DNA from: Pristiophorus japonicus
Taxonomy: Eukaryota
Assembly (NCBI RefSeq): GCF_044704955.1
Contig: NW_027251843.1
Location: 372,001 to 436,000 of the forward strand
Length of the DNA: 64,000 bases
Direction: 5' to 3'
The translations under genes and the position numbers were made by a program. A model generated the notes under the pieces. The model saw only the letters and a program-made list of their open reading frames with translations. It searched no databases and was not told where the DNA came from. Of this stretch, positions 7,293-37,690 are shown piece by piece (the stretch's first letter is position 1; each line of letters begins with the position of its first letter).

Positions 7293-7416
7293 CATTGAAG
7301 TGGGAGGGCCCTGATCCTGACCCTCGCCCATTGTCCATGCACTCTGACCTTCCAGGAGGTCTCGGGATCATTTGGGAGTAGTGACCCTGCCTGGCCCCGG
7401 TACACTGAGGCTAATT

Positions 7417-8950
7417 TGTAGAATTTACCAATATCTCGCAAAGATTCCAGATACCTTTCCCCTACAGAGGAGAAGAATCCCGTTCTGGGCTTTTAAAATG
7501 AGTTTAAAGGGGCAGACGAAGCCTGCGGGGGATAAAAGGGGATTCATTCATGGAGACCCCCCCCCGCAGTGTTTGGACTCATAGGAAAGGGAATTCAAAA
7601 TGCACCTAAATTACAGAAGCTTGAGATCCCCTAAACATCTATGGGAAGGAGCATATCGATTTTAAGATTCTACAACATTTTGGCTGCGAAAAAGAGTTAC
7701 CAAATACAGGAGGTGGAGCCAACGTCTGAAGCAAATTCGTGTAATAAGGATCCCAGACTGTCTGGGGGAACTATTCACCCCCTAAGAGATAATCGAATTA
7801 CCCAATCAAGTAAAATGGAAATCATGGTCAGAAAAACTGGACAATCCTAAAACAATGCAAAACCAGTGATAGCACATTCTCACACCCTAATCGAGTTACT
7901 GCTGACAAAGGAGACATTTGAAAATCAATGGACAGAACAGCTTAAACAGAGCCCAAGAGATTTGATGGGAGATAATGGAGCCTTTTTTTGGGATATATCT
8001 ATACCCCAGTTTTACAAGGAAAGCTAGCAGAACACAGGACTAGCAGAACACAGACTCGAACAGGACATAGACTCGAAAGGAACACAGACACGAACAGAAC
8101 ACAGACAGACACAAGCAGCCGGAGTGAAGAAATGGAGTCGTGAAGCAACCTACAAGAAATCATCAAGGACCGACCGAGCACGAGGCCCATGAAATGGAAG
8201 GTTGTCAGCAACCAAATTGACAAACCCGGGCCACCACAACCAGCGAAACGACCAACCGAAACCAACTCAGCAAAAACCGAAGAATCAACATTTATCTCCA
8301 CTCTACAATCTACTTCTGAACAGCCAACGGGTGAGAAATTACCAAAAGGGACTAACTAAAACCAAAGAAAGTGGGTACTTATCCCATACATCCGAAACGC
8401 AACTTACCGCATCAACGGACGCACCCCAACTGAAGACTACGCAGTCCGAAGTCCTCTCCTCCGTCCGGGGTATGACTCGCCTAGAAGGCCAAGTGCAGCA
8501 AACCCCGAAACCGTGATTCACCGACAACTGTCTAAAGGGATTGGTGAGCATAGCCCCTGAACCCTCAGAGCTATAACTTAGTTAGTTAGGGGAATTGGGA
8601 GGGGGGAGGCTGGGATAACTTGTGTAAATGTATCTGCATTCTCCTCTTTACCACATTTAGAGTTTAAGCTGTATTCTTTTCCCCACAGGCTGTAATTTGA
8701 CATTTTATTCAATGTGTTGTACCCTTCAGTGTGTATTGATCTGTGTGTGTGTTATTAAAGGTGTGCCTTTTACTTCTTTTTAAACACAATAAAGCCATAC
8801 CTGCTTCCTACCTTGAAACCGATTGTCTGTCCAAGTCTGTCACAGTCGCTTCATAATTCCAGTGTCTAGAACCAAGGGTGTAGGAGCGATTCGGAACCAC
8901 TCATATAAGGTCAGAAGGGAAAGCTGACCCTCTGCAAACCACCCCTTACA
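7417..8950 (+). repeat. 5' LTR (1534 bp)
   Basis: Direct repeat of 15493-17084. TG...CA ends, AATAAA at 8788-8793, internal ~20-bp tandem repeat at ~8020-8110. Confidence 0.95.
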
Positions 8951-8951
8951 C

Positions 8952-10784
8952 ATGGCAACCCAGATAGGACACTGGTACAAGGGACGTGATAAGAGAGAGA
9001 CTGGTTTCAGGAAACAAAGCAAAATGGAAGAGGAGATTTCCTCATATGTGTTTAAGAGGGTAAATGTGGCTAAGGAGTGGGTACTCGATTTATTGTATGC
9101 TGAGCATCCAGAAGATGCTGCAGCTCAATGGACCGATAACAAGGACCATAAAAGGACGATAGAGAAGGCCATTTGGCTAATTTGCCTTAAGCAACAGACC
9201 CGGCTTCGAGATGAGGAGAATGAGAAATTAAAGGGAGTATTGAGACAGGCAGAAGAGAGGTCCAGCGCAAGGGCCACAGTCGGGGAAAGGTTGTGGACAG
9301 AGGTGGGACAGTTAAAGGAAAGTAGAGAGCTCACTGAAGAAAGGCACAAAACCCAACTGGACCTTTTACGGTGTCAAATTATTGAAGCCAAGAATAGCAA
9401 ACGGGCGTTGCGGGAAGAGAATTCCTGCCTCGCCAAGCAAGTTAAAGAGTATGGGGAGAGGGTGAGACACATTCAGGTAGCCTATAAGGTAGCCAGTACC
9501 AGGGAATTTGAGGCAGGAGACCACGGCCCCTGCCAGCAGCAGATCCAAAGCTTGAACCTTGCTCTATCCCGGGCTAAAGGCATGGTGTGCCTGTTAAACC
9601 CGGGTTTAGCCCAGGAACACCTGGTTGGGCAAGGAGAAACCCCTCAGTCACCGCCTGTAGCTCCCAGGAACGGCCCGGAGCAGCAGGGGTGTCAGCCAGA
9701 GTGCGGGGCAGGCAAGGATTGCGAACTACCAACACCGGCAGCCCCGAGTTTTAACTCGGCTTGGCAGCAGGGGGAAGAGGGCAAGCCAATACAAGAAGGG
9801 CCGAAACCAGGGCCAATGGACCCGGTCCGGCAGCAGAAGTTTGGCCCGCCTGATGCCAATGGGGCAGCAGGACCCCTAGAATGCAACTTCGTAGTCCCCC
9901 ACGACACCCAAAAACTGAGGGCTATGATAGGCCACCTAAGTAAGCTCACCCAACAGGGGGATCCCTCGGTACACTTCCTGGAAGTGGAACACACAGGGGA
10001 TATTAACGGGTGCGATGATTCGGAGCAGGCTAAGCTGTTGCTCTTCTCACTAGACACCAAGCTGTGCCATTCCCTCTCTGCAGACAGCAGAAAGGGGCGA
10101 AACACGTACGCTACAGTTAAGGAGGAGGTTCCAGAGGCCATGGGTATGAACGACGGGAGTCCTTTCTCCCGATTGGAGAAAACAGTGCAGCTCTATGGGG
10201 AGACTCCACAGGCTTTCGCCGACAGGTTGTAGCCGGTCTACGAAAGGGCCTGTAGTGGGGTTCTTGACCGGGCCCACCTGAACCCTAACGAGCTGGCTCA
10301 CTGGCTCCGCAGCCTGGTGGCAAACAGCTTACCTGGAGTAAAGGCAAAAGTCGAGGTCTGGTTCGATCCAAGAGATCCCAGAACCACCGAGGAGACAGTG
10401 GTCAGACAGTTGACCCTGGCTTACCGGAACGGTAGAGGGACAGAGGAGCCCTCCTCTAAAGGGAGGGTCCATGAGATTAAACCCAGCCAAGGCAAGAGAG
10501 AGTGGCATCAGGAAAGTGGGAACCCTCCCCATAAAGGAGGCGAGTGTGTTGGGTGTGGGAAAAGTGGGCACTGGAGGAAGGACTGTAGGAACCCATGGAA
10601 AGAGACTAAGGGAAGGGCCACTCCAGCCCCAGCCCGTAAGGCCGGGGCAGGAACACCCGACTCATATGAGACACTCGTAGCCGCCCTACAGACACTCACA
10701 AACGGACAGGGAGCAGTAGCTATCGCAACTGGTGCAGTAGCCGGTACGGTAAAACCCTCTGCTCCAACCCACCCAGATGCATGA
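8952..10784 (+). pseudogene. gag: gag: N-terminal coiled coil, capsid-like region, CCHC zinc knuckle; premature TAG at 10230-10232
   Basis: ORFs 8952-10232 and 10317-10784 share a frame. Knuckle CVGCGKSGHWRKDC. Confidence 0.85.
8953..8970 (+). promoter_or_regulatory. Primer-binding site, tRNA-Arg(CCG)-like
   Basis: TGGCAACCCAGATAGGAC starts 2 nt after the LTR. It differs at 2 positions from TGGCGACCCAGATGGGAC, the complement of the vertebrate tRNA-Arg(CCG) 3' end as I recall it. Confidence 0.7.
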
Positions 10785-13700
10785 CTAAGGTCAGCGCAGC
10801 CTGTGTACCTGTGTTCCCGAGAGTATGATTCCTGGAAGAGACCTTGCGTTACGATGGAGGTGGAGAAAGTGAAAGGGACCTACCTGCTAGATACTGGTGC
10901 TTCCAGCACCCTTGTATATGTAGATAACCCAGCTACCTCACCTCTATCGAACGGGGTCCCGTACAGTCTAGTGGGGTTCACAGGCAATGAGCAAACTGGT
11001 TCGTTTTCCATCCTGCTCACCATTCAGTTAGGGACACTGAAAACCAAATGGAAGTGTGTCCTGATGGAATGGGAGCAGAAGGGAAAAGGGATCCTGGGGG
11101 CTGATTTTATCATTGCCCACCAGATCCTAGTGGATTTCAGGAACCACTGTCTATGGGGAGCCATAGTGACTGACAGGGAAGGTGAGGTGGCGGTGATCCC
11201 AGAAAAAGGGGCCAAGGGAACATTGTGTACCGTGAAGCCAAAGGAGGGTTATGACTTGGAATTACTGGTCAGTAACACCTCAGTGGAGTACCAGGCATAT
11301 GTATGGGCACACCTTGCAGCATTTGCCACCCACAAACATGACTGTGGTAGGGTAACGGGGGGTGGAAGTTAATATAGTAGGGGACCCCATTACCCGACCA
11401 CAAAAGCAATATAACTTCCCCAGGGAGGCAGAGGCAGACCTGACAACGGCGCTGGGATCACTGGTAGAGCAAGGGGTGTTAAGATCGATAGCCACCCATG
11501 TGAACTCTCCACTGTGGCCGGTTAAGAAACCGAACAACTCATAGAGGGCCACCGTGGACTATTGAATACTAAATAAGAATATCCCTGCCTGTGCACCCAC
11601 TGTAGCAGCCGTAGCGGATCTCATAGGGAGTATTCCAGCATCCACGACCACTTTCACGGTGCTGGACATTTCAAATGGGTTCTGGTCCATTCCTTTAAAA
11701 CCTTTAAGGGCCAACAATACACGTGGAACTGTCTTCCCCAAGGCTTCCACAACAGCCCCAGCATTTTTCACCAATGCATGGCGAACTGTTTAAAGGGCTT
11801 TAGCAGACCCCAGCAGTTGGTGCAGTATGTGGATGACCTGCTCCTGTTCACCGATCAGGGGGAGGAGCATGGCCCACTGCTGGCTGAGCTGCTGGAGCTG
11901 CTAAAAGAAGAAGGGTTTAAAGTAAACCCCAAGAAGGCACAGGTCGGCCAGAAGGAAGTCAAATTCCTGGGGCTGACTGTGCGTGCTGGGGAAAGGGCCA
12001 TAGACAAGGCTAGAAGGGAGGCAGTACAGGAGTTACCAGCCCCCAACACAGTGACAGGGGTAAGATCCTTTCTAGGGCTCACTGGGTACTACAGAGACTT
12101 CATTGAGGATTATGCAGCCACTGCAGCCCCTCTGCTCAGGCTCCTACACAAGGGTGTAGAGTGGGACTGGGATGAGGGTTGCGAGGCAGCATTTAATCAG
12201 CTCAAGAAGGACTTGCAGACCGCGCCAGCCTTGGGTACGATAGATGTAGGAAAGGAGTTTTTCCTGGAGGTGGCAGCCAGCGGGGACAATTTGAGCTCAG
12301 TGCTGCTTCAAGAGCAGCACGGCCTTACTGGCCTTAGTGGTTTACTCCTCCAGTATCCCAACAGATGTGGAGAAGTGGTACTCCAACTGTGAGAGACACC
12401 TCCGAGCCACACATTGGGCAGTGAAAAGATCTTTCATCTTCACGGGAGGGTCTCCTCTAACACTCCTAACCCACCACACACCGACTCAGATGCTCCTAGA
12501 TGGGAGGATTAAGGACAGGACGGTGAGCAGTGCCCGCATTGCTCGCTGGACACTGCTCCTCTCCCAGATGGACCTCAGAGTAGAAGGCCCCCGTGATCAA
12601 GGCTCGCAGCCAACCTAATCTATCCTGGGAATGCCCACAGGTGCTCCATAGAAGAGGTATGGGAGGTGAGCATTGGCCTTCAGGCTGGGTTACACCCTAC
12701 AGGCCGGGACATCTACGTGGACGGGTCCAGCACGGTATCTGTTGGCGAATGACTCACTGGGTGCGGAGTCTATGACCCAAGGGCAGATATTGCCCTGGCA
12801 ATCAAGCTGCCCAGCACCATGAGGGCCCAGCACGCTGAACTGTCCGCCGTAATGTACGTGGTGATCCACCCCGAGGAATTCCCTACTCCGTACACGATTT
12901 GCTCGGACAGTATGTTCACCTGCAATTCATGTACGGAGTACCTGGCTCTCTGGTCCCGTCGCGGATACATGTCCGCTGATGGGAGACCCCTGGCAATCAA
13001 GCCCCTGCTGGAGAAAATCTTGACAGCGGTGGGGGAAGAAAGAAAGGTCTACATACATAAGGTGAAGGCCCATTCAAAAACTGAACCCCTAGCAGAGGGA
13101 AACCAACAGGCTGACAAACTGGCCAAAGAAGGTGCCCGCACGGGAAAGTTCTGGGACCCCTATGACACCGGCCGCATAGCAGCGGTCAAGAATAAGAGCA
13201 GGGCAGCGGTGAGTACAGGTATAGCTTTGGCTCCGGACTTAAAAACAGTTCAGGCACAGGACCCAGTCCTGAAAGCTGTCCTGAATGCGCTAGCTAGAGG
13301 AGAGAGAGTAGAAGGTCCGTACGGCACAGCAGCCATTACCGTTAAGGAAGGCATGCTGTTTAAAGAGGGACAATGGGTCGTGCCACAGCAGCACCAGAGG
13401 GAATTCCTAAAACTGGCCCATGAGGGTCCAGGAGCGGGACACCCCGGGCCTGAGACCACCTGGCAACGGGTGGAACAGGCAGGATGGTGGCCGGGACTCA
13501 AGGAGGATGTCCGCGAGTTCTGTGCGAACTGCCTGGTGTGTGCTACGAACAACCCTGACCCCCAGAAAAGGAAGGTGTCCCTAGGACACGTCAGGAGGGT
13601 AGAGGGACCATGGCAGTCAATCCAAATTGACTACATCGGGCCCCTACCCACCGCCCAGGGAGGCTACTAATACTTCCGAGTCCTGATGGACGTGTTCTCA

Positions 13701-14933
13701 AAATGGGTTGAAGCCTTCCCCTGCCGAACAGCCACCGCACGAGGGACAGCTAAGATTCTAGTGAGGGAAGTGTTCTCCCAGTGGGGACTCCCACAGTATG
13801 TGGAGTCGGACCAGGGGAGTTATTTCACCGGGCAGGTAATGCAGGCAACCCTTAAGGTGCTCGGCATTGAGGGGAAATGGCACGTTGCCCACAATCCACA
13901 GTCACCTGGTATTGTGGAGCATTTAAACTGCACCATTAAAGAAAAGCTGCGGAAGGAAACGAGAGACTCACCCCAAAAGTGGGTGGAGGTCTTACCGTTG
14001 GTCCTAATGGGGATCCGAGCCCAGCCAGTCAAAGAGCATCGGATATTCCCCATACGAGCTCATGACTGGCCGGATCATGCGGAACCCCACCCATATCCGA
14101 ACCCCGGTGCTCACAGAAGGTCAGCTCAGAGAGGTGAACCGGGACCGGTTTGTCAGGAACCTGTTTGAACACCTCAAACAGATTCACTGGCAGGCTGCTA
14201 GTAACATGGGCAGACAGCATCAGGGGAACCGATTGCTGCTAGAACCCAGCAAACACCACGAATGGGAGATAGGGGACCAGGTCATGGTGAGGAACTATGC
14301 TCAGGTCGGTGTTTTTGAAGCATTATATATGGGGCCATACAGCATTGTGGACAAGGCAAGCCCGATGGTCTGTGCCATAAAGCTGCCCCACCGTACTAAG
14401 TGGTTCCACATCAACCAGTGCAAGCTTTACAACCCAGGGTCAGCCAAGCACAGAGGGCAGCCGGGAGGGGTGAACCGTCCTCAGGACAGGGACCCTCCGT
14501 TGGCCGCCCCCGACGGTGGAGGGCCACAGGGAATGTGGCAGGCTCAGAAACCGTGCCTATAGTGGCGGTGAATTGCAGTACTGGAGGGGCTATCCCACCC
14601 ATCGTTTGGGATTCGGACGCACCCCCAGTAACCCAAGCCCTGAGAAGGACCCTCCGTACACCACGGCCAAAGATACTGTGGTCACTGGCATCTGAGCCTC
14701 AGCGATTCTACCCTAGGAGAAGGGCAGCCCGACAGGAAAGGCCGAAGGTCAGAAGTACAGAGGCCGCTCAGAGTAGGGACCACCAGCCAGCCGCCTCCAG
14801 CGGTGAGGGTCTCACAGGAGCAGTAGCAATGAGCTGTCCCAGAGACAAGGGTCTCCAGCTCACCAGCTGCGGGGAAACCCTAGCATCCAGGCCGCTATCA
14901 GGCCGCACAAGGCATGGGCCTGACAGGAACTAA
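10785..14933 (+). pseudogene. pol: pol: protease, RT, degenerate RNase H tether, second RNase H, integrase with GPY/F and basic tail; several stops and frameshifts
   Basis: LLDTGAS, QYVDD, RSFLGLTGYYR, IYVDGS...AQHAEL...ICSDS...KVKAH...GNQQADKLA, HHCC (H..GH...CANCLVC), IDYIG/SDQG/VEHLN, MGPY. Confidence 0.9.
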
Positions 14934-15484
14934 CCAGGCCACCCGGAGACGGGTGGCGGTTGTACATAGCTCTAATTTTAGTTTAAGGCAGCTGACTGCA
15001 CCATTTTACATTTTAAGGTTTCGTTTAGAATTGAGGTTAATGTTGCAGTAATGTTGAGGTGATTATTTTGAGTTTGTCTTGTGTGTCAGCCAGCCTGAGA
15101 GCAGTTCTCAAGGGCAGGATCCAGACATTACCGGGTAATGGACAAACCTCAGGAGACCAATTGATGTTGTTTAATTTTAATCTATGTTTTTTTCCCTTCT
15201 GTAATGTGGTTGTACGTTGCCTATATGCTGGTGAATATAATGTAACTGAAATGAAATGTAACTGTGCTGAAATACAATTGTAGTGATTGAACCCCCTCCA
15301 AGCTGGGAGGGTATAAATGTAAAAAGTTTGTACCTGTAAAGGGAAAAGTGTGCATCTATGGTGATGTTACATAAGTGTAATGCATTTTGGGTATTAGTTT
15401 AGCTAATTTACGGGGAAGGTTATCTCTTGGGAGTCAGGAACTTTGCTCACCTCGAAGATGATACCATAAGTGATATGGTATCAC

Positions 15485-15492
15485 AGGGGGAA
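15485..15492 (+). promoter_or_regulatory. Polypurine tract
   Basis: AGGGGGAA directly before the 3' LTR. Confidence 0.75.
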
Positions 15493-17084
15493 TGTAGAAT
15501 TTACCAATATCTCGCAAAGATTCCAGGTACCTTTCCCCTACAGAGGAGAAGAATCCCTTTCTGGGCTTTTAAAATGAGTTTAAAGGGGCAGACGAAGCCT
15601 GCGGGGGATAAAAGGGGATTCATTCATGGAGACCCCCCCCCCCCCCCAGTGTTTAGACTCATAGGAAAGGGAATTCAAAATGGACCTAAATTACAGAAGC
15701 TTGAGATACCCTAAACATCTATGGGAAGGAGCATATCGATTTTAAGATTCTACAATATTTTGGCTGCGAAAAAGAGTTACCAAATACAGGAGGTGGGGCC
15801 AACGTCTGAAGCAAATTCGTGTATTAAGGACCCCAGGCTATTCACCCCCTAAGAGATAATCGAATTACCCAATCAAGCACAATGGAAATCATGGTCAGAA
15901 AAACTGGACAATCCTAAAACAATGCAAAACCAGTGATAGCACATTCTCACACCCTAATCGAGTTACTGCTGACAAAGGAGATATTTGAAAATCAATGGAC
16001 AGAACAGTTTAAACAGAGCCCAAGAGATTTGATGGGAGATAACGGAGCCTTTTTTTGGGATATATCTATCCCCCAGTTTTACAAGGAAAGCTAGCAGAAC
16101 ACAGAAGTAGCAGAACACAGGACTAGCAGAACACAGACTCGAAAGGAACACAGACTCGAAATGAACACAGACTCGAACAGGACACAGACTCGAACAGGAC
16201 ACAGACTCGAACAGGACACAGACTCGAAATGAACACAGACAGACACAAGCAGCCGGAGTGAAGAAATGGAGTCGTGAAGCAACCTACAAGAAATCGTCAA
16301 GGACCGACTGAGCACGAGGCCCACGAAATGGAAGGTTGTCAGCAACCAAATTGACAAACCCGGGCCACCACAACCAGCAAAACGACCAACCAAAACCAAC
16401 TCGGCAAAAACCGAAGAATCAACATTTATCTCCACTCTACAATCTACTTCTGAACAGCCAACGGGTGAGAAATTACCTAAAAGGACTAACTAAAACCAAA
16501 GAAAGTGGCTACTTATCCCATACATCCGAAACGCAAATTACCGCATCAACGGACGCACCCCAACTGAAGACTACGCAGTCCGAAGTCCTCTCCTCCGTCC
16601 GGGGTACAGCTCACCTAGGAGGCCAAGTGCAGCAAACCCCGAAACCACGATTCACCGGCAACTGTCTAAAGGGATTGGTGAGCATGGCCCCTGAACCCTC
16701 AGAGCTATAACTTAGTTAGTTAGGGGAATTGGGAGGGGGGAGGCTGGGATAACTTGTGTAAATGTATCTGCATTCTCCTCTTTACCCCATTTAGAGTTTA
16801 AGCTGTATTCTTTTCCCCACAGGCTGTAATTTGACATTTTATTCAATGTGTTGTACCCTTCAGTGTGTATTGATCTGTGTGTGTGTTATTAAAGGTGTGC
16901 CTTTTACTTCTTTTTAAACACAATAAAGCCATACCTGCTTCCTACCTTGAAACCGATTGTCTGTCCAAGTCTGTCACAGTCCCTTCATAATTCCAGTGTC
17001 TAGAACCAAGGGTGTGGGAGCGATTCGGGACCACTCATATAAGGTCAGAAGGGAAAGCTGACCCTTTGCAAATCACCCCTTACA
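15493..17084 (+). repeat. 3' LTR (1592 bp)
   Basis: Repeat of 7417-8950 with extra copies of the internal ~20-bp unit. AATAAA at 16922-16927. Confidence 0.95.
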
Positions 17085-17440
17085 AATTGTAGCCTCACCC
17101 TTGACCTCACCCCGGTGCTGGGCAGCAAGCTTTTAAATGCAATCTAGAAGCTTCTACACCGACACCCAACATGAAGCCTTGCTGAAGTATGTTTATATAA
17201 GTGTGCCGCAATGTTCCCGGATAAAGTTCTCCCGATCTGTGTGTGATCTGAGCTTTCTCACTGCTGAGCCTGTTTCCCCTGTATCCACCCATCTACAGTT
17301 CGAGCTTCCTGCCAGTGAACAGCGTCTTAACGGGACACTCAGTCTTTACGAACTCTTACTGTTAACCATTTCAGTGCTGAATGTGCGGCAATCCTGCACT
17401 GCAGATGTTTATACAACAGTCCAATATGATTTTCAGTATC

Positions 17441-22814: not shown

Positions 22815-25510
22815 CCTGGCCTGCTACCTTCAGGGATCTGTGGACATGTATACCAAGGTCCCTTTATTCCTCTACAACTCTCATTGTCCGACCATTTAAT
22901 GCCCTGATAGCCCTCCCCAAATCCACTTCTCTGGATTGAATTCCATTCATTAATGTTCTCCCCACCTGACCAGTTGATTGATATTTTCCTGCTGTTTACA
23001 GGTTTCTTCTTCATTATCAGCCACACGGCCGATTTTGCTATCATCTGCAAACTTCTTCATTATACCCCCTACATTCAAGTCTAAATCATTGATATATACC
23101 ACAAAAAGCAAGGGATCTTGTACTGAGCCCTGCGGAACCCCACTGGAAACATCCTTCCAGTCACAAAAACACCCATCAACCATTACCCTTTGCTTCCTGC
23201 CTCTGAGCCAATTTTGGATCCAACTTGCCACTTTGCCCTGCATCCCATGGACTTGACTTTCGTGACCAGTCTGCCATATATCAAAAGCCTTGATAAAATC
23301 CATCTACACTACATCATATGCACTGTCCTCATGGACATTCCTTATTACAGCCTCGATGAATTCAATCAAGTTATTCAGATATGAGCTTCCCTGAACTAAT
23401 CCATGCTGACTGTCCTTGATTAATCCGTGTCATTCCAAATGAAGATTTATCCTGTCTCTCAGAATTTTTTCCAATAATTTTCCGAGCACCAAGGTTACGC
23501 TGACTGGCCTGTAATTACTCGATCTATCTCTTTCTCCCTTTTTAAACAAAGTTATAACATTAGCAGTCCTCCAGTCCTCTGGCACCACACCTGTAGTCAA
23601 AGAGGATTGGAAAATGTTGGTCAGAGCCTCTGCTATTTCTTCTTTTGCTTCTCTTAACAGCCTGGGATACATTTTATCCGGGCCTGGGGATTTGTCCACA
23701 TTCAAAGCTGCTAAGCCCCTTAATACTTCCTCTCTTACTATGTTTATTTCATCTAATATTTCACACTCCTCCTCCCTGATTGCAATGTCTGCATCGCCCC
23801 TCTCTTTTGTGAAAACAGGCGCAAAGTATTCCTTGAGAATCATACCCATGTCTTCTGCCTCCACACACAGATTACCTTTATGGTCTCTAATAGGCCCTAC
23901 TCTTTCTTTAATTATCCTCCTGCTCTTAATGTATTTGAAAAACATCTTTGTGTTTTCCTTGATTTTACTTGCCAAAATGTTTTCATGCTCTCTCTTTGCT
24001 TTCCTAATTTCCTTTTTAATTGCACCCCTGCACTTTCTATACCCCTCTAAAGTTCCTGCAGTATTGAGCCCTCGGTATCTGTCATAAGCCTCCCTTTTTT
24101 ACTTTATCCTACACTGTATATCCCTTGACATCCAGGGGCCTCTAGATTTGTTAGTCCCACCCTTTTTCTTTAAGGGAACAGACTTACTCTGAAACCACAG
24201 GATTTCCTCCTTGAATGCCTCCCACTGCTCTGACACTGATTTACCTTCAAGTAGCCGTTTCCAGTCCACTTTGGCCAAATCTCATCTCAGCTCAGCAAAA
24301 TTGGCTTTTCCCCAATTGAGAACTTTTATTCCTGCTCTATCTTTGTCCTTTTCCATAACAATCGTAAATCTAACTGAATTATGATCACTAGCACCAAAAT
24401 GCTCTCCCACTGATACCCCTTCCACCTGCCCCTCTTCATTCCCCAAAGCCAAGTCCAGAACCATCCCATCCCTTGTTGGGCTTATTACATACTGGCTAAA
24501 AAAGTCCTCCCAAAAGCATTTTAGGAATTCCGCACCCTCTATACCTTTCACACTAATTTTATCCCAGTTAATATTAGGGTAGTTGAAATCCCCTACTATT
24601 GCTGCCCTATAGTTTTTGCACTTGTCACAAATGTGCCTACATATTTGCTCTTCTCTCTCCCTCTGACGTTTGGGGGTCTATAGTACACTCCCAGCAGTGT
24701 GATTACCCCTTTTTCATTCTTCAATTCGACCTATATGGCCTCATTTGATGATCCTTCTGACATATCATCCCTCCTCACAGCTGTAATTGTTTCTTTCAAT
24801 TGTTTCACAACTGCGACCCCCTCCTTTTTTATCCCACTCTCTATCCCGTCTGAAAACCCTGTAACCAGGAATGTTGAGCTGCCATACCTGCTCTTCTTTC
24901 AGCCATGTCTCAGTAATATCTATAATATCGTACTCTCAAGTGTCTATCTGTGCTCTCAGCTCATCTGCCTTATTCCCTATACTCCATGCATTGAAGTATA
25001 TACCATTTAGCACTGCCAAACTGCCTTGTTGTCTATTTTCTAGGCTTTGTTTCCTTGGTCTTCCAAATTCACTGTCTAGTTTTCTGCTTTCCAATTCCAG
25101 CTTTGCTTCTTTCCCCTCTGAATCTATTCTCCGGTTCCCATCCCCCTGCCAAGCTAGTTTAAATCCTCCGCAACAGCACTACCAAAGCCCCCTGTGAGGA
25201 TATTGGTCCCGGCTCTGTGGAGGTGCAACCCATCCGGCTTGTACAGGCCCCACCTCCCTCAGAAATGGTCCCAATGTCTCAGGACACAAAAAACCCTCCC
25301 TCCTGCACCATCTCTACTGCCACGCATTCATCTGCTCTATTCTCCTATCTCTGTACTCACTAGCACGTGGCACCGGGAGTAATCCGGTGATTACTACCTT
25401 TGAGATCTTGCTTTTTAATCTCTCTCCTAGCTCCCAAAACTCTGTTTGTAGGACCTCATCCCTCTTTCTACCTGTCATTGATACCGATATGGACCACAAC
25501 CTCTGGTTGT
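22815..25510 (-). mobile_element. CR1 LINE (ORF2 and ORF1 C-terminus), split by the ERV; 5' part continues at 32587-33130
   Basis: RT motifs GVPQGSV and KFADD. ORF1 reads through the ERV insertion site. Confidence 0.88.
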
Positions 25511-26239
25511 TGTCGAAATCTCGACCTCCGAAAAGAATGACTCCGACACTTACAGCTCCGGCAGAAGTTTCTTTAATTTACTTGCTAGCAAGGGGCAGGT
25601 CACACTCAGTCAAGGGCTAAATGAACACCTCCGAAATGGTACAGTTTCACAAGATATTTATACAGTAAAACCCAAGTTATGGCCTCTCCCTGTGTATTGG
25701 CTCTGTCTCGTAGTCAGTGAATACAGATAAAGAGTTAATTACTACATCCTTGTCCTGACATGGTTTCCAGATATTTCCTTTTGTCAGGGTTATTCGTTGG
25801 CCAGCCGGCCATTACTCCATGAGAGTGAGGTAATGAGCTATTACCTGTCTTGCATTGTGTCAGGATTGTTCAGTTTCCTAGTCAGTTTATCTGTTTGCAT
25901 CAAATGGATGTGGTCTCTACAAGAGATAATGGCTGGTGGTTTGAGTCTCGAAGAAAAGGGTGGGGTGACATGGAACTCTTGTTGTGTAGACAATAGAGCA
26001 CCATGGGCGGGGTGGGGGGGGGGTACTTGTCTCAGCATGACTTGTCTCCTAGCTGTCTGATGGCCATCAGCCATCTCAAACCAGGTTTAGCTGCTTATGC
26101 AAGCTGACTGCTTTCATGCAGAAAGTTCTGGAAGGACCAGGACTCCATTTTGTTATATATATTGCAAAGGACACACAAATACCATATGGTATCAGCTTAG
26201 ATAAAAATACATTTCCACATTCCCCCATTTTGTCCTTCA

Positions 26240-27710
26240 CAAGGACAACTCAATCCATTCTGATCTTGTACAGTCTCTCCATTTCCATTTCCACACAAGA
26301 GCCTTCAGTAGTTGTTGCTACCATAACTCTAGCCGTGGTCTCGGTAGGTAATATGGTTTTTCCCACCCTGGCACAGCAACACTTAACCAAGACAAATAAT
26401 TGATACAGGGCGAAGACTATCAGTAGGAATATGATCAAACTCTGTACCACAGATTTCCCTAGGGATCCCAACCATCCCGATGCCCACCCCACAAGGTGAT
26501 ACCGTCCTGGCCAACTGTCTGTTTATACTCTATTACCTTTTTCCTGATATATTCAGCTAGACTGCCGATTTCTTCTGATTTATCTGGGCTATACGTACAG
26601 CATTCTTCACCTATTAATGCGCATGTCCCTCCCTCCTTGGCTAGGAGATAATCTAAGGCCATACGATTTTGGAGAGCCACTGTTCGAATAGCTACCATTT
26701 CATCAGTTACCCCTTCAAAGGCTTGGGAAGTTGCGTTGGCTACTGATTCAACTAAGTTAGCCAGTTACCGTAACTGCCATTCGGTTGATGCTATTCCATA
26801 AGGTGGCACCATTACCTTGAATATTCCGTTTAGCCATGTCAAATCCCGTTTAAGTCTATGACTTCCATCGGCATCCCTTAGAGTCTTTATTGATCTGATA
26901 AAGGGTACCACATATCCTAAGTAACAGGACCCTGTCCAGTTGGCTGGTAATCATGGGTAGGCTTTATGGCCACAAATAAAGTAGGTGCAATTATAGGACG
27001 TCAGCTCCTGGTCCTTTTGCGCCATCCCTACTCGAGTGGTCTCACCTTCCCACCCTTCACCTGGGGCTTTGTTATGGACCATTGTCCAGCCAACGGTTGC
27101 TATCTTTCTCTCAGTGGTATTAGTTGTGGCTTGCCATTTAGTCATTTGGGAACACTTGCTGCGTCCCATTTCTGGTCCTTTAGTTTCATTACTCACGAGG
27201 CATATTATACCTTCGGGATTTTCTATTCTGGGAGTAATACTTAGGAAGGGAGCCTGATGGTTATTATCATAATTGGGCTGGTACCATCCCTGGAAGGCTG
27301 TAAGTTTATACCCTGCCGACCTCCATTCTGTTTGCTCCTTCGTTTCTGGCCCCTTAGTTAGGTTTGTCCTATTCTACCATTTCTGATTCGTTAAAGGGGA
27401 CCGATCTCAGGGGAATGCCCCCTTCGGAGTGGACAGGTACATGGGAACATATCCAACAACTCGACAAGTTTCTTTCTTGAGCATACCTATGACTCAGTGC
27501 CATAAATACGTTTACTTGCAATTCCCTTCGGTGCCGGGTCTGTACCCCTGGTGTAATCAATAATGCAAAGTAAAACCCTGTCAAGCCAAGCACCATCAGT
27601 CCCCATAGTCCATACAGTTCCTTATTCAGTCTTCCTTTTTCTGTTCCTCTGATTCCTTCTTCCCTTCCTCCTGGTCGGGTGCCCGTTTGCAATGGGATGC
27701 ATGGATTCAT
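26240..27710 (-). pseudogene. env: Gamma-type env, with stops and frameshifts
   Basis: Signal-like segment, CWIC (CXXC), furin site RLKR (26846-26857), ISD LQNRMALDYLLAKEGGTC, CX6CC, transmembrane helix. Confidence 0.9.
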
Positions 27711-29820
27711 GTTGGTCTTTCCTTTACCTTGATTGCAGTATTGGTCGCCAGCAAGACCTGGTATGGTCCTTCGAATCTTGGCTGTAGACTGCTTTTTCTT
27801 TTAAAAATCTTGATGTAAACAAATTCCCCTGGCTCCAGGTTATGTCACTTCCTTCCGCTGGCTTGACTTGAGCTCCCTTTACCTGTGAATGAAAGCTGGA
27901 AATACATTTGGTTAGTGCAATACAATAATTCAACATATTTTCCTCCATTTTGTGGATGTCCATTTGTTTTGCAGTAAATGGTGCTGTAAAAGGTAGTCGT
28001 TGGGGACGTCCCATAACTATCTCATGCGGTGACAGGCCTGTTGTTCTGTTGGTTGCAGATCACATTACCATCAAAGCTAAAGGCAGCAGTTCTGTCCATT
28101 TCAGTCCAGTGTCATTGCATAATTTTGCCAGCTTATTTTTAAGCATTCCATTATATCTTTCAACAAATCCAGCTGATTGTGGATGATAACTGCAATGAAA
28201 ACGTTGATTAACCTGCAAAGCTTTACACATTTCTCTTATAACAGTTCCCGTTATCACTAGAAAGCATGGCAGGGATTCCGAAGCACGGTACGATTTCCTT
28301 TAACAAACATTTAGCAACAGTAGTGGCATTGGCCTTTTTACATGGAAAGGCTTCAATCCATCTCGAGAACACATCTACAATACCTAATACATACTTGAAT
28401 CCCATACACATAGGTAATTCAATAAAATCCATTTGTAAATGTACAAAAGGCCCAACTGGATTTGGGTGGGAGGCAGATTCTACTTTTTCCGTCTTACCCG
28501 GATTCATTGTCTGACAGGTAACACAATTTTCACAGATTTGTTTTGCAATTGCCGAAATACCTGGTGCATACCAAGTTGTCAAAATATAATCTGCCAATCC
28601 CCCTTTGCCCGCATGTGTGAATGTATGAACACATCGGGCTATCCATGGAAGTAAGGATCTAGGGGCCACCACACGGCCGTCATGGTGAACCCATATTCCT
28701 TCTGGATTTTTATAACATTGATCCTTCGTCCAGGTCACCACCTCCTCCGTACTGGCCTGTGTCTGAAAGGTCAGCACGTCATTAATAGTGGGTGGCGGGA
28801 CTGAGCAATTATTTTTCCTTAGTGGGAACAATGACACCTGCATCCCCCCTTTTGACACAGCTGCTGACTTAGCTGCATTATCAGCTCTGGCATTCCCAAG
28901 TGCCACCTCATTCGACTGGCCTGTATGTGCTTGGCATTTGATAATGGCAAGTTTCAAGGGGCATTGAATGGCTTGCAGAAGATTTTCCACTTTTGATAGG
29001 GGTTCCTGAAGAAGTCAGGTACCCGCGAATCTTCCAAATTTGTCCATAGTCATGTGATACCCCAAAAGCATACCTGGAGTCAGTGTAGATATTAACTGTT
29101 TGTCCTTCAGCCAGAATACAGGCTCGAATTAACGCAAACAATTCGGCTTGTTGGGCTGAAAAGGAGTCTGGAAGAGAGGCTGTTTCGACAACATTAAACT
29201 GGGTTACAATTGCATAAGCCGCTCTAGGTTGGCCCCTATCATTTCGTAGGGCTGATCCGTCAACATAGTACACTAAATCAGGGTTACACATTGGTACATC
29301 TGTTAGATTGATACGTGGTTTAGTCACTAATTCGGTTACCATTTCACATGAATGGGGTTCGCCGTCTTCTTCCGTGGGGAGTAGAGTGGCTGGATTTAAG
29401 GTAGTGCATCTTTTGATGATAAGGTTCGGATTTGATAACAGTTCGACTTCATATTTAGTGGTTCTTGCAGAGGTTAGGTGTTGGGTGGCACATTTAGTAA
29501 GTAAAATCTCGACAGAGTGTGGGATATACAAAATGGTCTGATGATTTAGAGTTATTGTCTGAGCCTGTTGCATAGCATAATAAGCTGCTGCCAACGAAGG
29601 AAGACATCTTGGTAGTCCGCGTGTCACTGGGTCTAGTTGGGTACTGAAATACGCTACCGGCCGCTGCCTGTCCCCATGTAACTGAGTCAAAACAGATTGT
29701 GCAAAACCCGACTTGTGATGCACAAATAAGTTGAATAGCTGAGTGTAATCTGGTAATCCCAAGGCTGGTGCTGAAGTGAGGGGCTGCCTAAGACTCTGGA
29801 AAGCATTCCGGGATACTTCA
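27710..29820 (-). pseudogene. pol: pol remnant: tether, RNase H, integrase (PR and RT absent)
   Basis: ALGLPDY, YYVDGS, SAQQAEL, YTDSRYAFG, QMDFIEL, SSDNG, YHPQSAG.VER, FEGPYQV. Confidence 0.9.
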
Positions 29821-29829
29821 TTCCAAATC

Positions 29830-30935
29830 CTTCTTTAAGCATTGTGAGAATATAGTAGGTTCATTCACAGCTCGTAGGTCATGGACAAACCTCCATTTGT
29901 GTGGGCTTCTGAACTGGAAGAATCAGTGTGTTACACGGATTTCTCATTTATGCTTATAGTGATTCACAGATCACAGAATGTAAAGTACTTGTTTTCTAAT
30001 CTTATTAAAAGGCTTCCAAACCCAAGATTTTTCCAATACACCCAAAATGTTGATCAAGGAGATCACCTCAAATATCTCAAAATCCCAATTCAACTATTGT
30101 ACTGCCACTCTTTATCAAAAAAAACAAATCCTCTTACTGAGCTAGAAGCTTTTGTACCAAGATTTTACACCAAGGACAATGAGAGTGTATTCCCCCAGCC
30201 TGCACCTCGAGAGACCCACAAAGGCTTTTTTTTTAAAAAAGGCATTACAACTTCCCAAGGCATTACAACTTTTAACCACCGGGACCATGTCTCAACAAAC
30301 CTACCCTTTGTGCATTTTCTAGCTCCGTAACTTCTCATCCGAATAAATCCACACCTGCGCTTCTAACTTAAAATGTCTTAAACTTCCCACATACAGGACA
30401 ACACTATGAAGGGTTAAAAAACTTCACTTTGTTTGAAAAAGTGGGTGGAGCTAAAACAAACAGGCAGCTCCACAACCCTTCCAAATAGGTTTCCAGACAC
30501 AAGAAAAAAAACACAGAAGCGCTCTCATTCAAAGACAAGACATTCACCACTCTCATTCAAAGACAAGACATTCACAAAAGTCTCTCTCCATTCAATAAAG
30601 CTTCTCCTTTTTTTAATCCATAAGTCACTATCAGGTTCTCTTATGGCATTTAATTTACTTCCTCTGTTAAATTTTACATGGGCTTGAAGAATCGGAACCC
30701 AGGCCTTTTCTATTACTTTCCTTTTTTTTCTACCTGGATCTCTGTTTATAAGACACTCCTCTAGACATGTTGTTCTCTCTAAATTAAATGAACCATCGGG
30801 TGGAAATGGCCTGTTTTCACCCTTAGTCCACTTTACCGTTTTTTTTCTTTGGTCAATTGAAGACTGACCACAATTCTGGAGCATGACATAGGCTGGTGTG
30901 CCTTTTGTGGTGTTTTAACTTGCTCTGGCACCCAT
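29830..30935 (-). pseudogene. gag: gag N-terminal (matrix) remnant
   Basis: ATG GGT GCC AGA GCA AGT (myristoylation-type MG start), then a disrupted frame leading to GTPAYVMLQNCG...WTKGE..PFPPDGSF. Confidence 0.65.
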
Positions 30936-31854
30936 TCTGCATGATTAAGATTTTCCACAGTTTCTGATCTCACAATCCTTTCGGCCAACCGAGTTCTCTA
31001 TGCCCACTTCTCCTGGCCGTTACGTGGCCTGAAAAGGCTCTTAATTCGGGCTCTGTCTGGGTGTGTGAGATATGTTGGCACAAACCAACCGTAGTTGATC
31101 AATCAGTTACTGTTTCTTTTCTCAATCAATCCTTGTTTTTTTTTCCGAATCACAATTTTCCTTAGTGATTCTTCCGGTTTCTCTAATGGCAATGTCGCAC
31201 AAAGGTATTGCACACGACAGTACAACAAGGACAGCTAGGACAAACAATATTCACGCGAGTATACAAATCATAACCTTACACTCTATCTAAACAAATAATC
31301 AATTCTCAGTCTGCGTTGTATGCCACTACAGACCGAGTCCTTAACTTATCCTAATAAAACTTATAAAACTTATGGTTCCATACCCTAACTCTTATCACAG
31401 AAGAACCTTTGATCGATTGCGCTTCTTTTTTTTTCCTACTCTTATCACATAAGAACCTTTTCCTAATTAAAAACAATAAAACTCTTATCACATAAGAACC
31501 TTCGATTGATTAGCGCTTTTTTTTTCTAATAAGAACCTTCAGGAACCTTTTTCGATCGACGAGCGCTCCCTTACCGACTGAAACCTTCCCCGGGCTGTTT
31601 CGAGATTTTTCCAGAACCCGTTCTCTTCTGCTTGCAAGTTGAGAAAGAAGTGGTTATAAAAAAATATCTTTAGGTTTTAAATGTCGAGTCTTGTAGATTG
31701 CAGTACCTCCCCTGTGGACAACAGATTACATATGCGATTCAACAGTGAAGAAACCTCTTGCGAGCAAAAGGCTCACCTTGTTTTGGCCACTGAAGCCTTT
31801 CACTGGAGAGGCACTATGCCTGTATCCGTTTTATTCACAGGACAGAGAGTATGC

Positions 31855-31872
31855 ATCTCGGTGGAACCTCCA
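31855..31872 (-). promoter_or_regulatory. PBS, tRNA-Gln
   Basis: TGGAGGTTCCACCGAGAT is the 18-nt complement of the tRNA-Gln 3' end (ATCTCGGTGGAACCTCCA). Confidence 0.9.
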
Positions 31873-32586
31873 AGAAGTAACTGTCGAAATCTCGACCTCC
31901 GAAAAGAATGACTCCGACACTTACAGCTCCGGCAGAAGTTTCTTTAATTTACTTGCTAGCAAGGGGCAGGTCACACTCAGTCAAGAGCTAAGTGAACACC
32001 TCCGAAATGGTACAGTTTCACAAGATATTTATACAGTAAAACCCAAGTTATGGCCTCTCCCTGTGTATTGGCTCTGTCTCGTAGTCAGTGAATACAGATA
32101 AAGAGTTAATTACTACATCCTTGTCCTGACATGGTTTCCAGATATTTCCTTTTGTCAGGGTTATTCGTTGGCCAGCCGGCCATTACTCCATGAGAGTGAG
32201 GTAATGAGCTATTACCTGTCTTGCATTGTGTCAGGATTGTTCAGTTTCCTAGTCAGTTTATCTGTTTGCATCAAATGGATGAGGTCTCTACAAGAGATAA
32301 TGGCTGGTGGTTTGAGTCTAGAAGAAAAGGGTGGGGTGACATGGAACTCTTGTCGTGTAGACAATAGGAGAGCACCATGGGGGGGCGGTACTTGTCTCAG
32401 CATGACTTGTCTCCTAGCTGTCTGATGGCCATCAGCCATCTCAAACCAGGTTTAGCTGTTTATGCAAGCTGATTGCTTTCATGCAGAAAGTTCTGGAAGG
32501 ACCAGGACTCCATTTTGTTATATATATATTGCAAAGGGCACACAAATACCGCATGGTATCAGCTTAGATAAAAATACATTTCCACA

Positions 32587-33130
32587 TTGTTCACCCTCCT
32601 CCCTCAGAATGTACTGCAGCCACTCAGTGACATCCTTGACCCTGGCACCAGGGAGGCAACATACCATCCTGGAGTCACGTCTGCGGCCGCAGAAATGCCT
32701 GTCTGTTCCCCAACTATCGAATCCCCTACCACTATTGCTCTTCCACTCTCCTTCCTCCCCCCTGTGCAGATGAGCCACCCGTGGTGCCGTGGACTTGGCT
32801 CTGGCTGCACTTCCTAGAGGCACCATCGCCCCCACCAGTACTCAGAACACAATACTGGTTGGAGAGTGAGATGGACTCAGGGGACTCCTGCACTACCTGC
32901 CTGGACCTCCTCTTCTGTCTGGTGGTCACCCATTCCCTCTCTGCCTGCACACTCTTAAGCTGCGGGTGGCCACCTCTAGAAACGTGCGATCCACGAAGTT
33001 CTCAGCCTCGCAGATACACCGCAGTGACTCCAGCCACCGCTCAATCTCCGACACGCGGAGCTCGAGTTGCTGTAGCTGGTGACACTTCCTGCACATGTGG
33101 TCGTCCAGGCCACGAGAAGCATCCAGGACA
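32587..33130 (-). mobile_element. CR1 ORF1 5' part (SGNH esterase-like)
   Basis: RAIVVGDSIV and VCCLPGARVKDV motifs. Confidence 0.8.
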
Positions 33131-33314
33131 GAACTGCCCTGCCATGCCTCTATTTAATAGACTAAGGACTAACTTAGCAGAAATAAATTCAAACTAAAAA
33201 AAAGCAAATAATGGTCTAGCCTACTTCATTCAGGCCATAATTTCTGGATTGTTCACCCGACTGAGGGCGAACACCATCGATGGGCCATTAATGGGCCTTT
33301 GGTTTTCAGCTCAG

Positions 33315-33920
33315 TCAGCTGTGGCTTAATGGGCAGCACACTCACCTCTGAGACCAAAGGTTGTGGGTTCTAAGTCCCATCCCTGAGACTAAGCTCCGAA
33401 ATCTAGACTGACAGTCCCAGTGCAGTACTGAGGGAGAGCCGCACTGTCGGAAGGGGCTGTTTTTCAGGAAAGAGGCTTGTCTGCCCTCTCAGGTGGACAT
33501 TAACTATCCTGTGCCACTATTTTTAAGAAGAGCAGAGGAGTTCTCAGCGGTGTCCCGGCCAATATTGATCCCTCAACCAACATCACAAAAGAACAGATTA
33601 TGCAGTCGGACACTCGCCCCCCCAAGCCCACCCCCAGGGGAAGTGCAGCGTGCCACATTGCGCTCCACTTCCTGTCAGGGGCCGTGATCCCAATTTCGCA
33701 TCCGTGGCGGCACTTGGGCGTGGGAAAAGTTACCGCCCCACTCGGGACGATACGCAATTTGGGCCCATTATCTGGTCATAGTCACATGTGGGGGCTTGCT
33801 GTCTGTCGTGTCTCCTCCATTGCCGCAGTGACTACACTTCAAAAGTACTTCATTGGCTGTAAAGCGCTTTGGGACGTCCTGAGGTGGTGAAAGGCGCTCT
33901 ATAAATGCAAGTCTTTCTTT
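33315..33920 (+). mobile_element. Deu-domain SINE with a GC-rich insertion at 33601-33766 (second copy ~51501-52108)
   Basis: Same head, core and tail as the 17441 SINE. The insert is flanked by ATTA on both sides. Confidence 0.65.
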
Positions 33921-35023
33921 CCAATTGAGCTCCACGTCTTTGAAACCCAAACCCGCGGACAGTGACGGACAGGTAAAGACCCTGTGGTCCATCCAGCCCG
34001 TCCCACACAATTGTGATACCTTGTGTATCACAGTATAGACTCTCCACCCCACCCAAAACTACCTGATCTCCTGGGAGAGGCGAAAAACCAGGGAAAAAAC
34101 CCATTGGGGGAAATAAATCTGGGAAACTCCTCTCCAACCACCCCCGCTCTCCCCCCAGGCGATGGAAACTAGTCCAGGAGGTGACTGTGGCCCTGAATTC
34201 CCTGCAGTAACTACCTTCTGTAAGTGGTGATCTCCGCACCGGCCACAAACAGGTCCTGCTCTCGCTTATGTACAGCTCATGGATTTAAAATTACAAGCTT
34301 TCCCCACAGTGTCAAGTGCTGCAAATACTGTGTTACATTATCAGGGTTATATTCTCACTGTCTGTCATTGTCACAACACTCGCTATATAAATGCAAGTTG
34401 TTGTTGTGTTCAGGGCCGCTGTATCTGGCTCAGGCTTCTTATCCATCCCCCCTTCCCTTCCCTCTCCATTGGGGGCCGTGCCTTCAGCTGCCTGGGCCCT
34501 AACTCCCTGCTCCCTAAACCTCTCTGCCACTCCACCCCTCTCCTCTTTTAAGACCTCCCTTCAAACCCAATCTGTGACTGAGGGTTTTGATCACCCTCCC
34601 AGCTCCTCCCCCTTTGGCTCAGCACCACTTTGACCAGATTACGCCTCTGTCAGCTGCCTCGGGATGTTGTTCTAATGTTCCAGTTGCTGTCGCAATGCGG
34701 GTTGTTGCTGCTGTACCTGGCGGCAGAGCGTCTCTGTGTGGATATACCCCGTGCACCGAGCTCCGCGGTGAGGCCTCCCACAGTGGAAAGGCCTGCTGAT
34801 GATCGCTGCAGTGCGGAGTGGCTGCTGACCCACCAATCGGTCTGAGACACCGCCTCACGAGCGGACAAGGAGATACACGCTGAGATCCATCATCAAATGA
34901 CACGTGGGGAACTGGAAATGATTCTGCAAACCTGACTGGAGGTTTGGTACAAACGGGTTTTACAAACCAATCAATTGAGTGACACAGAAATTGTCCAAAA
35001 ATTTGGTCTTTTCAGAACCAACA

Positions 35024-35054
35024 TCGCCCCCTTTTGGTATGAAGACAGCACTGC
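35024..35054 (-). promoter_or_regulatory. Candidate CTCF site with upstream module (second copy 53212-53242)
   Basis: Minus strand reads GCAGTGCT-N9-CCAAAAGGGGGCGA. Confidence 0.5.
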
Positions 35055-35334
35055 CAATTTCACTCACAATTTGAGCTGCAATTTTCAATGTCTCCTTACG
35101 TGGTTCGCTGTCAATCTTTATTTTGTAACACTCCTGTGAAGCACTCGGGGAGTTTTACTGTGTTAAAGGTGTTGTATAAAAGTTGCTGTTGTTGTTTGTT
35201 CTGAGTTAGCTGTTCCAACTGAGGTCGGGATATGACTCACAGCTCAGGCTGTGCGGCATCCAGTGATGCAATGTTGTATCGTGGGTTCAAGCCCCACTCC
35301 AGGGACCTGAGTGCAAAATAAAGCCATACACTAC

Positions 35335-35880
35335 TGTGCAGTCCTGAGGGAGTGTTGCACTGTCAGAGGGGCAGAACTGAGGGAGTGCTGCACTGTTAGA
35401 GGGGCAGGACTGAGGGAGAGCTGCACTGTCAGAGGGGCAGAAATGAGGGACCGCTGCACTGTCAGAGGGGCAGTCCTGAGGGAGTGCTGCACTGTCAGAG
35501 GGGCAGTACTGAGGGAGTGCTGCACTGTCAGAGGGGCAGTACTGAGGGAGAGCTGCTCAGTCGGAATGGCAGTACTGATGGAGTGCCACACTGTCTGAGG
35601 GGCAGTACTGGGGGAGTGCTGCTCTGTCAGAGGGTCAGTACTGAGCGAGTGCTGCACTGTCAGAAGGGCAGTACTGCGGGAGTGCTTCACTGTTGGAGGG
35701 TCAGTACTGAGGAAGTGCTGCACCGTCGGAGGGGCAGTACTGAGGAAGTGCTGCACTGTCAGAGGGGCAGTACTGAGGGAGTGCTGCACTTTCGGAGGGG
35801 CAGTACTGATGGAGTGCTGCACTGTCAGAGGGGCAGTACTGAGGGAGTGCTGCACTGTCGGAGGAGGTGTACTGAGGGGG
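35335..35880. repeat. 33-bp minisatellite (~16 units) derived from the SINE core; second copy ~53523-54035 has one unit fewer
   Basis: Unit gcagtactgagggagtgctgcactgtcagaggg, preceded by a SINE head at ~35240-35335. Confidence 0.9.
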
Positions 35881-35884
35881 TACC

Positions 35885-36989: not shown

Positions 36990-37690
36990 GTTCCTCACCT
37001 CGGGGACAATAATGGTATGTTCCTCACCTGTCCTTTTCCTCTCCTCCCCTCCCCTCCCCCCCACACCCGGGGACAATAATGGCATTTTCCTCACCTCTCC
37101 CTCCTCTCCCACACGCAGGGACAATAATGGTAGGTTCCGCACTTCTCCATCTCCTCTCCCCCGCCGGTGACAATAATAGTATGTTCCTCACCTCTCGCTC
37201 TCCCCCCCCCCATCCCGGGGACAATAATGGTATGTTCCTCACCTCTCGCTCTCCCCCCCGGGGACAATTATGGCATGTTCCTCACCTCTCCGTCTCCTCT
37301 CAGCCCCCGGGGACAGTAATGGTATGTTCTTCATCTCTCCCACTCCTCTCACCCCCTGGGGACAATAATGGTATGATCCTATCCTTTCCTCTCCCCGCCC
37401 ACCCCACACCGGAGTCAATAATGGTATGTTTCTCACCTCACCCTCTCCCCTGACGGTTACAATAATTGTATGTTCCTCACCTTTCCCTCTCCTTTTCCAC
37501 CCCAGAGACAATAATGGTATGTTTAATGGTATGTTCCTCATCTCTCCCTCTCCCCCCGCCCCCCCCTCCCAGGACAATAATGTTACGTTCCTCACCTCCT
37601 CCCCACCTCCAGGGACAATGATGGTATGTTCCTCACCTTCCCATCCCCCCCCCCCCAACCCGGGGACAATAATGGTATGTTCCTTGTTAA
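36990..37690. repeat. Pyrimidine-rich variable-unit minisatellite (second copy ~55145-55845)
   Basis: Repeated ggggacaataatggtatgttcctcacct plus C/T-rich spacers. Confidence 0.85.

Follow-up and report, generated by a model that had tools for sequence, protein, structure and literature searches.

An env-less endogenous retrovirus of the shark Pristiophorus japonicus that probably sits at the base of the canonical Retroviridae and likely lost its env by deletion

Organisation of the element

The element analysed here occupies positions 7417 to 17084 of a 64,000-nucleotide stretch of DNA from the shark Pristiophorus japonicus (NCBI RefSeq assembly GCF_044704955.1, contig NW_027251843.1, positions 372,001 to 436,000 of the forward strand), hereafter called the window and numbered from its first letter. 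A preliminary description had proposed it to be an env-less retroelement bearing a long terminal repeat (LTR) at each end, with retrovirus-type dual RNase H, from the Loki/Odin clade, i.e., the sister lineage of retroviruses. Its features are as follows.

7413..7416, + strand: left target-site duplication AATT (the same 4 bases recur at 17085-17088)
7417..8950, + strand: 5′ LTR of 1.53 kb, at a Kimura two-parameter (K2P) divergence of 3.2% from the 3′ LTR
8953..8970, + strand: primer-binding site for tRNA-Arg(CCG), 2 bases off the form of other copies
9024..10784, + strand: gag, with an N-terminal coiled coil, a capsid region and one CCHC knuckle (start codon inferred)
10785..11150, + strand: aspartyl protease (DTG), with weak Pfam matches
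11360..12250, + strand: reverse transcriptase (RT) with thumb, YVDD at 11826-11837 (stops and frameshifts in the window copy)
12251..12600, + strand: tether, i.e., a Gypsy-type RNase H fold without catalytic acidic residues (Pfam RT_RNaseH, E-value of 7e-9)
12708..13140, + strand: second RNase H, its catalytic motifs all present (PF00075, E-value of 1.7e-16)
13380..14430, + strand: integrase, with HHCC, core and C-terminal SH3/GPY-type module (Pfam)
14431..14933, + strand: low-complexity pol tail, its tested part being approximately neutral (dN/dS of 1.2)
14924..15492, + strand: env-less 3′ region, with the purine tract at 15485-15492 and flank matches to a sister family
15493..17084, + strand: 3′ LTR of 1.59 kb
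17085..17088, + strand: right target-site duplication AATT, equal to the left copy

The two LTRs and the target-site duplication are as the preliminary description had them. Both LTRs have TG..CA ends, differ by 48 mismatches over ~1,520 aligned bases, and the purine tract is located directly 5′ of position 15493. The LTR divergence corresponds to ~7 million years (My) at a mammalian rate or ~73 My at the tenfold slower shark rate assumed in PMC4422223, so that the age of the element is poorly constrained.

The window copy is broken: gag is interrupted by one internal stop, and pol by several stops and frameshifts. A natural copy in which the frames are unbroken was therefore used as reference for the proteins. 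The window gag ends in a TGA codon, after which pol continues in the same frame. Along pol, Pfam recognized protease, then RT, then a domain of RT_RNaseH type that lacks the catalytic residues, and finally the PF00075 RNase H and integrase. Specifically, the EVAAS, CERHL and LTHH motifs fell within the Pfam RT_RNaseH/RT_RNaseH_2 domain, this tether being alignable to both the RNase H of Ty3 and the connection of murine leukemia virus (MLV), and the second RNase H contained every motif previously named for it, confirming the dual RNase H. The proposed coiled-coil Gag was likewise recovered, with one CCHC knuckle and a long N-terminal helix that was the only region with a predicted local distance difference test (pLDDT) score above 70 in a single-sequence structure model. 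Together, the LTRs, tRNA primer site, purine tract, target duplication and gag-pro-pol with tether are features of the canonical Retroviridae. No env-size open reading frame (ORF) was found between pol and the purine tract of the window element.

The env-less family across the genome

A search of the 5.9-Gb genome with the RNase H-integrase stretch yielded 129 scored matches of 91–100% identity, and exact-pattern counts, which are lower bounds, gave at least 1,427 LTR starts and at least 336 purine-tract/LTR junctions. All 20 fetched copies (among which three pairs are duplicates and one copy stops short of the 3′ LTR) were colinear with the window element, and none of the 20 contained an env-size insert. 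When measured by hand, the distance from RNase H to the purine tract was 2.56–2.74 kb in 20 of 21 cases; the exception is one of three over-long copies, all of which were explained by nested LTR or unrelated inserts. Moreover, a tblastn search with the env of a sister family (see below) gave no match on the window element or on 23 copies of the env-less family, and the earlier statement that no env precedes the purine tract holds for these 23 copies as well.

The in-frame gag-TGA-pol junction was kept in 16 of the 20 copies, and five of the 20 have one 18-nt primer-site form in common, of which the 3′ end of a host tRNA-Arg(CCG) gene is the complement. Identity among copies of the family was 91–95%. 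Over 15 copies (pairs not being independent, and stop codons being skipped), pairwise dN/dS was below 1 in gag (0.46), in protease-RT-tether (0.39) and in RNase H-integrase (0.48), which shows purifying selection on gag and pol; the pol tail stood at 1.2. Among sequencing runs listed as containing the element there was none of RNA, and contigs from four runs (kind unrecorded) cover the element and carry no information on expression or splicing.

Several individual copies have peculiarities of their own. The same insertion is found elsewhere on the window contig and also on a large contig (L019 and L020), its 3′ flank and ORF pattern being identical, which reflects either a segmental duplication or unmerged haplotypes. 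Another copy has an LTR of its own family nested in the integrase (L051), a further locus is a tandem pair of elements with one LTR in common (L023), and a 550-bp insert in the env-less 3′ region of a fourth (L014:6446-6996) resembles the solo LTR of another element.

Placement at the base of the canonical Retroviridae

Among database proteins, a single one was 80% identical to the element, followed by frog and coelacanth "NYNRIN-like" pols at 42–45%, and a piece of a database protein from a sawshark was 76–85% identical to the integrase. The nearest named relatives are thus amphibian and coelacanth pols annotated as "NYNRIN-like" or "Gypsy integrase-like" (P0004-P0008, P0066), which have the same domain order; the pol of the coelacanth relative differs from the published Loki-Lch. 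With blastp, the RT was 50–55% identical to these amphibian/coelacanth-type pols, 47% (200 bits) to snakehead retrovirus (SnRV) and 35–43% (134–174 bits) to lokiretroviruses (Loki). In the published alignment (PMC9040795, Data Set S2), its motifs agree with the snakehead retrovirus row and not with the Loki/Odin rows.

Maximum-likelihood (ML) RT trees were built after six of 70 proteins without full RT had been dropped, with references assigned by visual comparison with the published rows: P0084 was taken as snakehead retrovirus, P0073, P0009 and P0275, among others, as Loki, and P0291 as Odin-type. P0084 was 99% identical to a 10,688-nt viral contig of snakehead retrovirus. In the first tree, the element fell within a branch of 100/99 support together with snakehead retrovirus and class I, separate from Loki/Odin. 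In the second, from which 23 more proteins were removed before foamy and class II rows were added, the canonical branch (again 100/99) still held the element, with Loki/Odin outside. The element and the amphibian/coelacanth pols were grouped at 86/87, and the Odin-type P0291 grouped with Loki, which the element does not. Constraining the element with Loki/Odin cost 34.8 log-likelihood units (p-value of 0.0058 in the approximately unbiased (AU) test).

The proposal of Loki/Odin membership drew on the dual RNase H and missing env, a combination also found in Odin retrotransposons (PMC9040795), and on the coiled-coil Gag, as in zebrafish BHIKHARI. The latter is not diagnostic, since the Gag of snakehead retrovirus has a coiled coil too. 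Lokiretroviruses do share with the element the dual RNase H and a NYNRIN-like integrase similarity (PMC7947760), and its tether and integrase score higher against Loki (80–86 and 197–204 bits, respectively) than against snakehead retrovirus (54 and 129 bits). Nevertheless, the element lies outside the Loki clade in quick integrase and RNase H trees as well as in the RT trees, and it lacks the long insert between protease and RT of Loki Pol. Moreover, a Loki RT query over this genome found nothing above 40% identity among 131 scored matches, its three best matches being relatives of the element. Wang and Han list Loki in none of the three Orectolobiformes genomes screened, and no chondrichthyan host in the available text (PMC7947760). 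Membership of the Loki/Odin clade is largely refuted by the AU test and is very improbable.

A reading as an ordinary Gypsy element with an additional RNase H, as in plant Tat, would agree with the lack of env, and among single PDB sequences Ty3 gave the best match across the entire Pol, although the margin was small. This reading can be practically dismissed, as the RT trees set Gypsy apart by a 100/100 branch, and the RTs of MLV and foamy virus align without break through both the tether and the RNase H of the element. With a second RNase H present and an RT that is not among Gypsy, the element lacks the marks of Ty3/Gypsy (Metaviridae), in keeping with the initial view that tether plus RNase H sets it apart from ordinary Gypsy and near retroviruses.

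In the light of these comparisons, the element would belong inside the canonical Retroviridae, on a basal branch that is neither class I nor class II, and Loki/Odin membership is not supported. With snakehead retrovirus it shares gag and pol in one frame around a single stop (TAG at the junction in the virus, TGA in the element), a coiled-coil Gag, one knuckle, RT motifs and a basal position in the Retroviridae. The primer site of snakehead retrovirus is presumably also tRNA-Arg. Unlike that virus, the element has no env and has LTRs of 1.5 kb, and the two are not sisters in the RT trees.

This last point is one of several that weigh against the placement, together with the higher tether and integrase scores against Loki. 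Moreover, the base of the Retroviridae is poorly ordered in the ML trees, as is the deep order in the quick integrase and RNase H trees, and the grouping with amphibian/coelacanth pols has only 86/87 support. The RT trees contained one Odin-type and two foamy sequences only, and no rows for ERV-L or ERV-S (ERV, endogenous retrovirus).

SnRV-like, clade Huo or class III ERVs have already been reported from cartilaginous fish (PMC4422223, PMC6001957), including a snakehead-related lineage in elephant shark, i.e., CmiERV lineage I (PMC4422223). The likeness of the latter to the element is one of published description and not of sequence, CmiERV reference rows being absent from the RT trees; in these trees, which also lack ERV-L, the element and snakehead retrovirus are both at the base of the Retroviridae without being sisters. 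ERV4 of crocodilians and turtles is another basal retrovirus outside classes I and II (PMC4299795), and bird and turtle pols that may be ERV4-like fall in the same poorly ordered base as the element. According to the available description, ERV4 makes a 5-bp duplication, lacks both the Gag knuckle and the GPF/Y module, and keeps its env (PMC4299795), whereas the element has a 4-bp duplication, one knuckle and an SH3/GPY-type module.

Two observations on the relatives stand apart. The branches of bird "NYNRIN-like" pols (P0349-P0359) from ostrich, stork, crane and woodpecker are very short, which suggests a conserved, possibly co-opted retroviral gene. The predicted protein of one frog relative ends in a weak immunoglobulin-like domain (P0004, residues 1214-1291), which may mark the beginning of an env or else derive from a host exon fused to it.

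An env-bearing sister family and the loss of env

A second family (L054-L075), with 114 scored gag matches in the genome, was found beside one copy of the env-less family. Its RT is 87–92% identical to that of the element, and in copies with pol and env together the identities are 87–90% for RT, ~85% for RNase H and 82–85% for integrase. In seven of 12 fetched loci, a long ORF is located 3′ of pol; the other five are interrupted, truncated or have no env within 10 kb. In the predicted Env, a furin-like site precedes a heptad-like helix; a cysteine-rich region is also present, as is a hydrophobic segment at the C-terminus. A total of 119 scored matches to this env were found in the genome, the sister copies being 84–91% identical among themselves.

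Window positions 14924-14968 match the sister family just 5′ of its env and positions 15367-15516 just 3′ of it, with ~0.4 kb between these matches in the window vs. ~3 kb in the sister (match score of 69, with 46 as the highest score among 100 shuffles). Since the window matches the sister both directly before and directly after env, the window family likely lost its env by deletion. Because a close sister family has env, its absence looks secondary, so that the element, which had been proposed as an env-less member of the sister lineage, looks like a case of secondary env loss in a basal retrovirus rather than a pre-env missing link. This also distinguishes it from Odin (PMC9040795), as do an RT outside Loki/Odin and a copy number of hundreds for the env-less shark family vs. 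1–6 for Odin. Env-less ERVs are in themselves a known state (PMC12440569).

How the env-less family subsequently multiplied can be read in two ways. Its RNA could have been packaged into infectious particles with the sister Env, instead of being copied purely inside the cell. The abundance of the sister family, which is similarly diverged, would favor such complementation and at the same time speaks against the preferred reading, since it means that env loss was not needed for high copy number, and the env-less family could have drawn on the sister Env in trans. A further point on that side is that the check for env covers 23 copies, plus 21 distance checks, out of several hundred copies. Purifying selection on gag and pol, nevertheless, shows that the env-less family supplied its own core proteins, and its copies are somewhat closer to each other than sister copies are; both facts still allow Env in trans, and complementation is considered rather improbable, though by no means negligible.

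Relation of the sister Env to the lokiretrovirus Env

Two Loki loci with env were used for comparison, their Env being close to the published Loki Env text, with a weak Pfam Fusion_gly match. The F-type Env of Loki (PMC7947760) aligned with the sister Env: four sister copies against the two Loki Envs yielded z-scores of 7–11 in all eight comparisons, with none of 500 shuffles as high. One such pair had 118 identities in 490 colinear columns (24%) from end to end, with cleavage-to-membrane distances of 408 and 401 residues, respectively, and phmmer gave E-values of 5.5e-5 and 1.8e-4 among 26 ORFs. The sister Env was only weakly similar to that of snakehead retrovirus (z-scores of 1.4–6.5) and less so to foamy Env (0–3.4), the reverse of the RT order. 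As far as sequence comparison goes, the link with Loki is through the Env of the sister family and not through RT; this likeness also counts among the points in favor of Loki/Odin membership.

Against homology stand a marginal hhalign comparison (E-value of 0.012, score of 27.9 vs. a maximum of 25.6 in 30 shuffles) and the lack of a real match in a Pfam search with the sister Env. A PDB sequence search with it gave no match either, its AlphaFold model was unusable (pLDDT of 31) and gave no Foldseek match at an E-value of 0.001 or below, and no match came from scans of viral and metagenome sequences, whether single Loki proteins or the sister Env served as query. Genome searches with Pfam Fusion_gly, Spuma_A9PTase and snakehead Env came back empty and are uninformative, as there was no control match and Fusion_gly missed the sister env. 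Overall, the sister Env is very probably homologous to the Loki Env, from which an F-like fold would follow.

A genome-wide search with Loki Env gave six matches, four of which were fetched. One (L091; E-value of 0.0017) belongs to a third subfamily, with an Env 62% identical to that of the sister and a related integrase, so that the pairing of Env with this pol appears old within the lineage. The other three are degraded fragments (L084-L086; wider L088-L090) that are 27–36% identical to Loki Env (E-values of 4e-7 to 4.5e-11), lack both a match to the sister Env and a nearby pol on the same strand; they may be what is left of a further F-type lineage in this shark.

The opposite orders of Env and RT could also mean that a basal canonical gag-pol captured its env from a lokiretrovirus-like donor, after which the window family lost it. 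Domain swaps are reported as frequent by Wang and Han (PMC7947760), and the three fragments place Loki-Env-like sequence in this genome. An identity of only 24% to Loki Env, however, fits an ancient split, the third subfamily indicates an old pairing, and foamy Env is F-like as well (PMC11468914). Such a recombinant origin is thought unlikely, although it is a more serious contender than the other alternatives; it is compatible with the preferred reading on env loss and differs from it only on the origin of env.

Other features of the window

The TDHKPL motif that had been noted in a Gypsy-type element of the window lies near 39448, on the minus strand, and recurs near 57603. Positions 24890-43064 and 43062-60392 form a tandem duplication of ~18.2 kb with ~99% identity, both units of which contain, on the minus strand, pol pieces (tether, RNase H and integrase) of an ERV that looks like class I (28223-29834 and 46394-48005). 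A long 24-bp tandem array, with several frames open for more than 1,000 codons, occupies positions 60760-64000 inside a Gypsy-like protease region.

Conclusions

The best explanation, which we hold with considerable confidence, is that the element is a broken copy of a high-copy, basal (snakehead-retrovirus-like) canonical ERV, whose env was likely deleted and which then likely multiplied in the germ line through intracellular retrotransposition. At the outset, a basal retrovirus that was infectious and bore an F-type Env would have entered the shark germ line, one branch would have deleted env, the lost gene presumably being the F-type fusion protein that the sister still encodes, and this branch would have multiplied with its own Gag and Pol by intracellular copying, probably in that order. 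By analogy with known retroviral biology, a full-length RNA would be transcribed from the 5′ LTR, Gag-Pol would be made by read-through of the single stop, and reverse transcription would be primed by tRNA-Arg(CCG); the second RNase H would cut while the first acts as a structural tether, and integration would leave the 4-bp duplication. Env-less ERVs spread widely inside genomes.

The element itself thus represents an env-less ERV family in a retroviral grade already seen in cartilaginous fish, and it carries the warning that a dual RNase H without env can reflect secondary loss rather than a missing link. The sister family is weightier, as it combines a canonical-branch RT with an Env detectably similar to that of Loki; the literature searched, from which most subscription papers were absent, yielded no description of a shark ERV of the canonical branch with a Loki-like Env. 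Wang and Han prefer independent gains of env on the grounds that Loki and canonical Env share no detectable similarity (PMC9040795). The Env type of the sister family and Loki may instead be ancestral to both canonical retroviruses and lokiretroviruses. More tentatively, with the odds somewhat against it, the basal canonical retroviruses of sharks would carry a vertically inherited homologue of the F-type Env of Loki, the ancestor of Loki, Odin and Retroviridae would have had an F-type Env, Odin and the window family would be secondary losses, and the two-gain view would be wrong. Together with the F-like Env of foamy viruses, the sister family makes it possible to ask at the sequence level whether the original retroviral envelope was of F type and arose by a single gain, and the presence of an env-bearing and an env-less family in one genome allows two ways of spreading to be compared directly.

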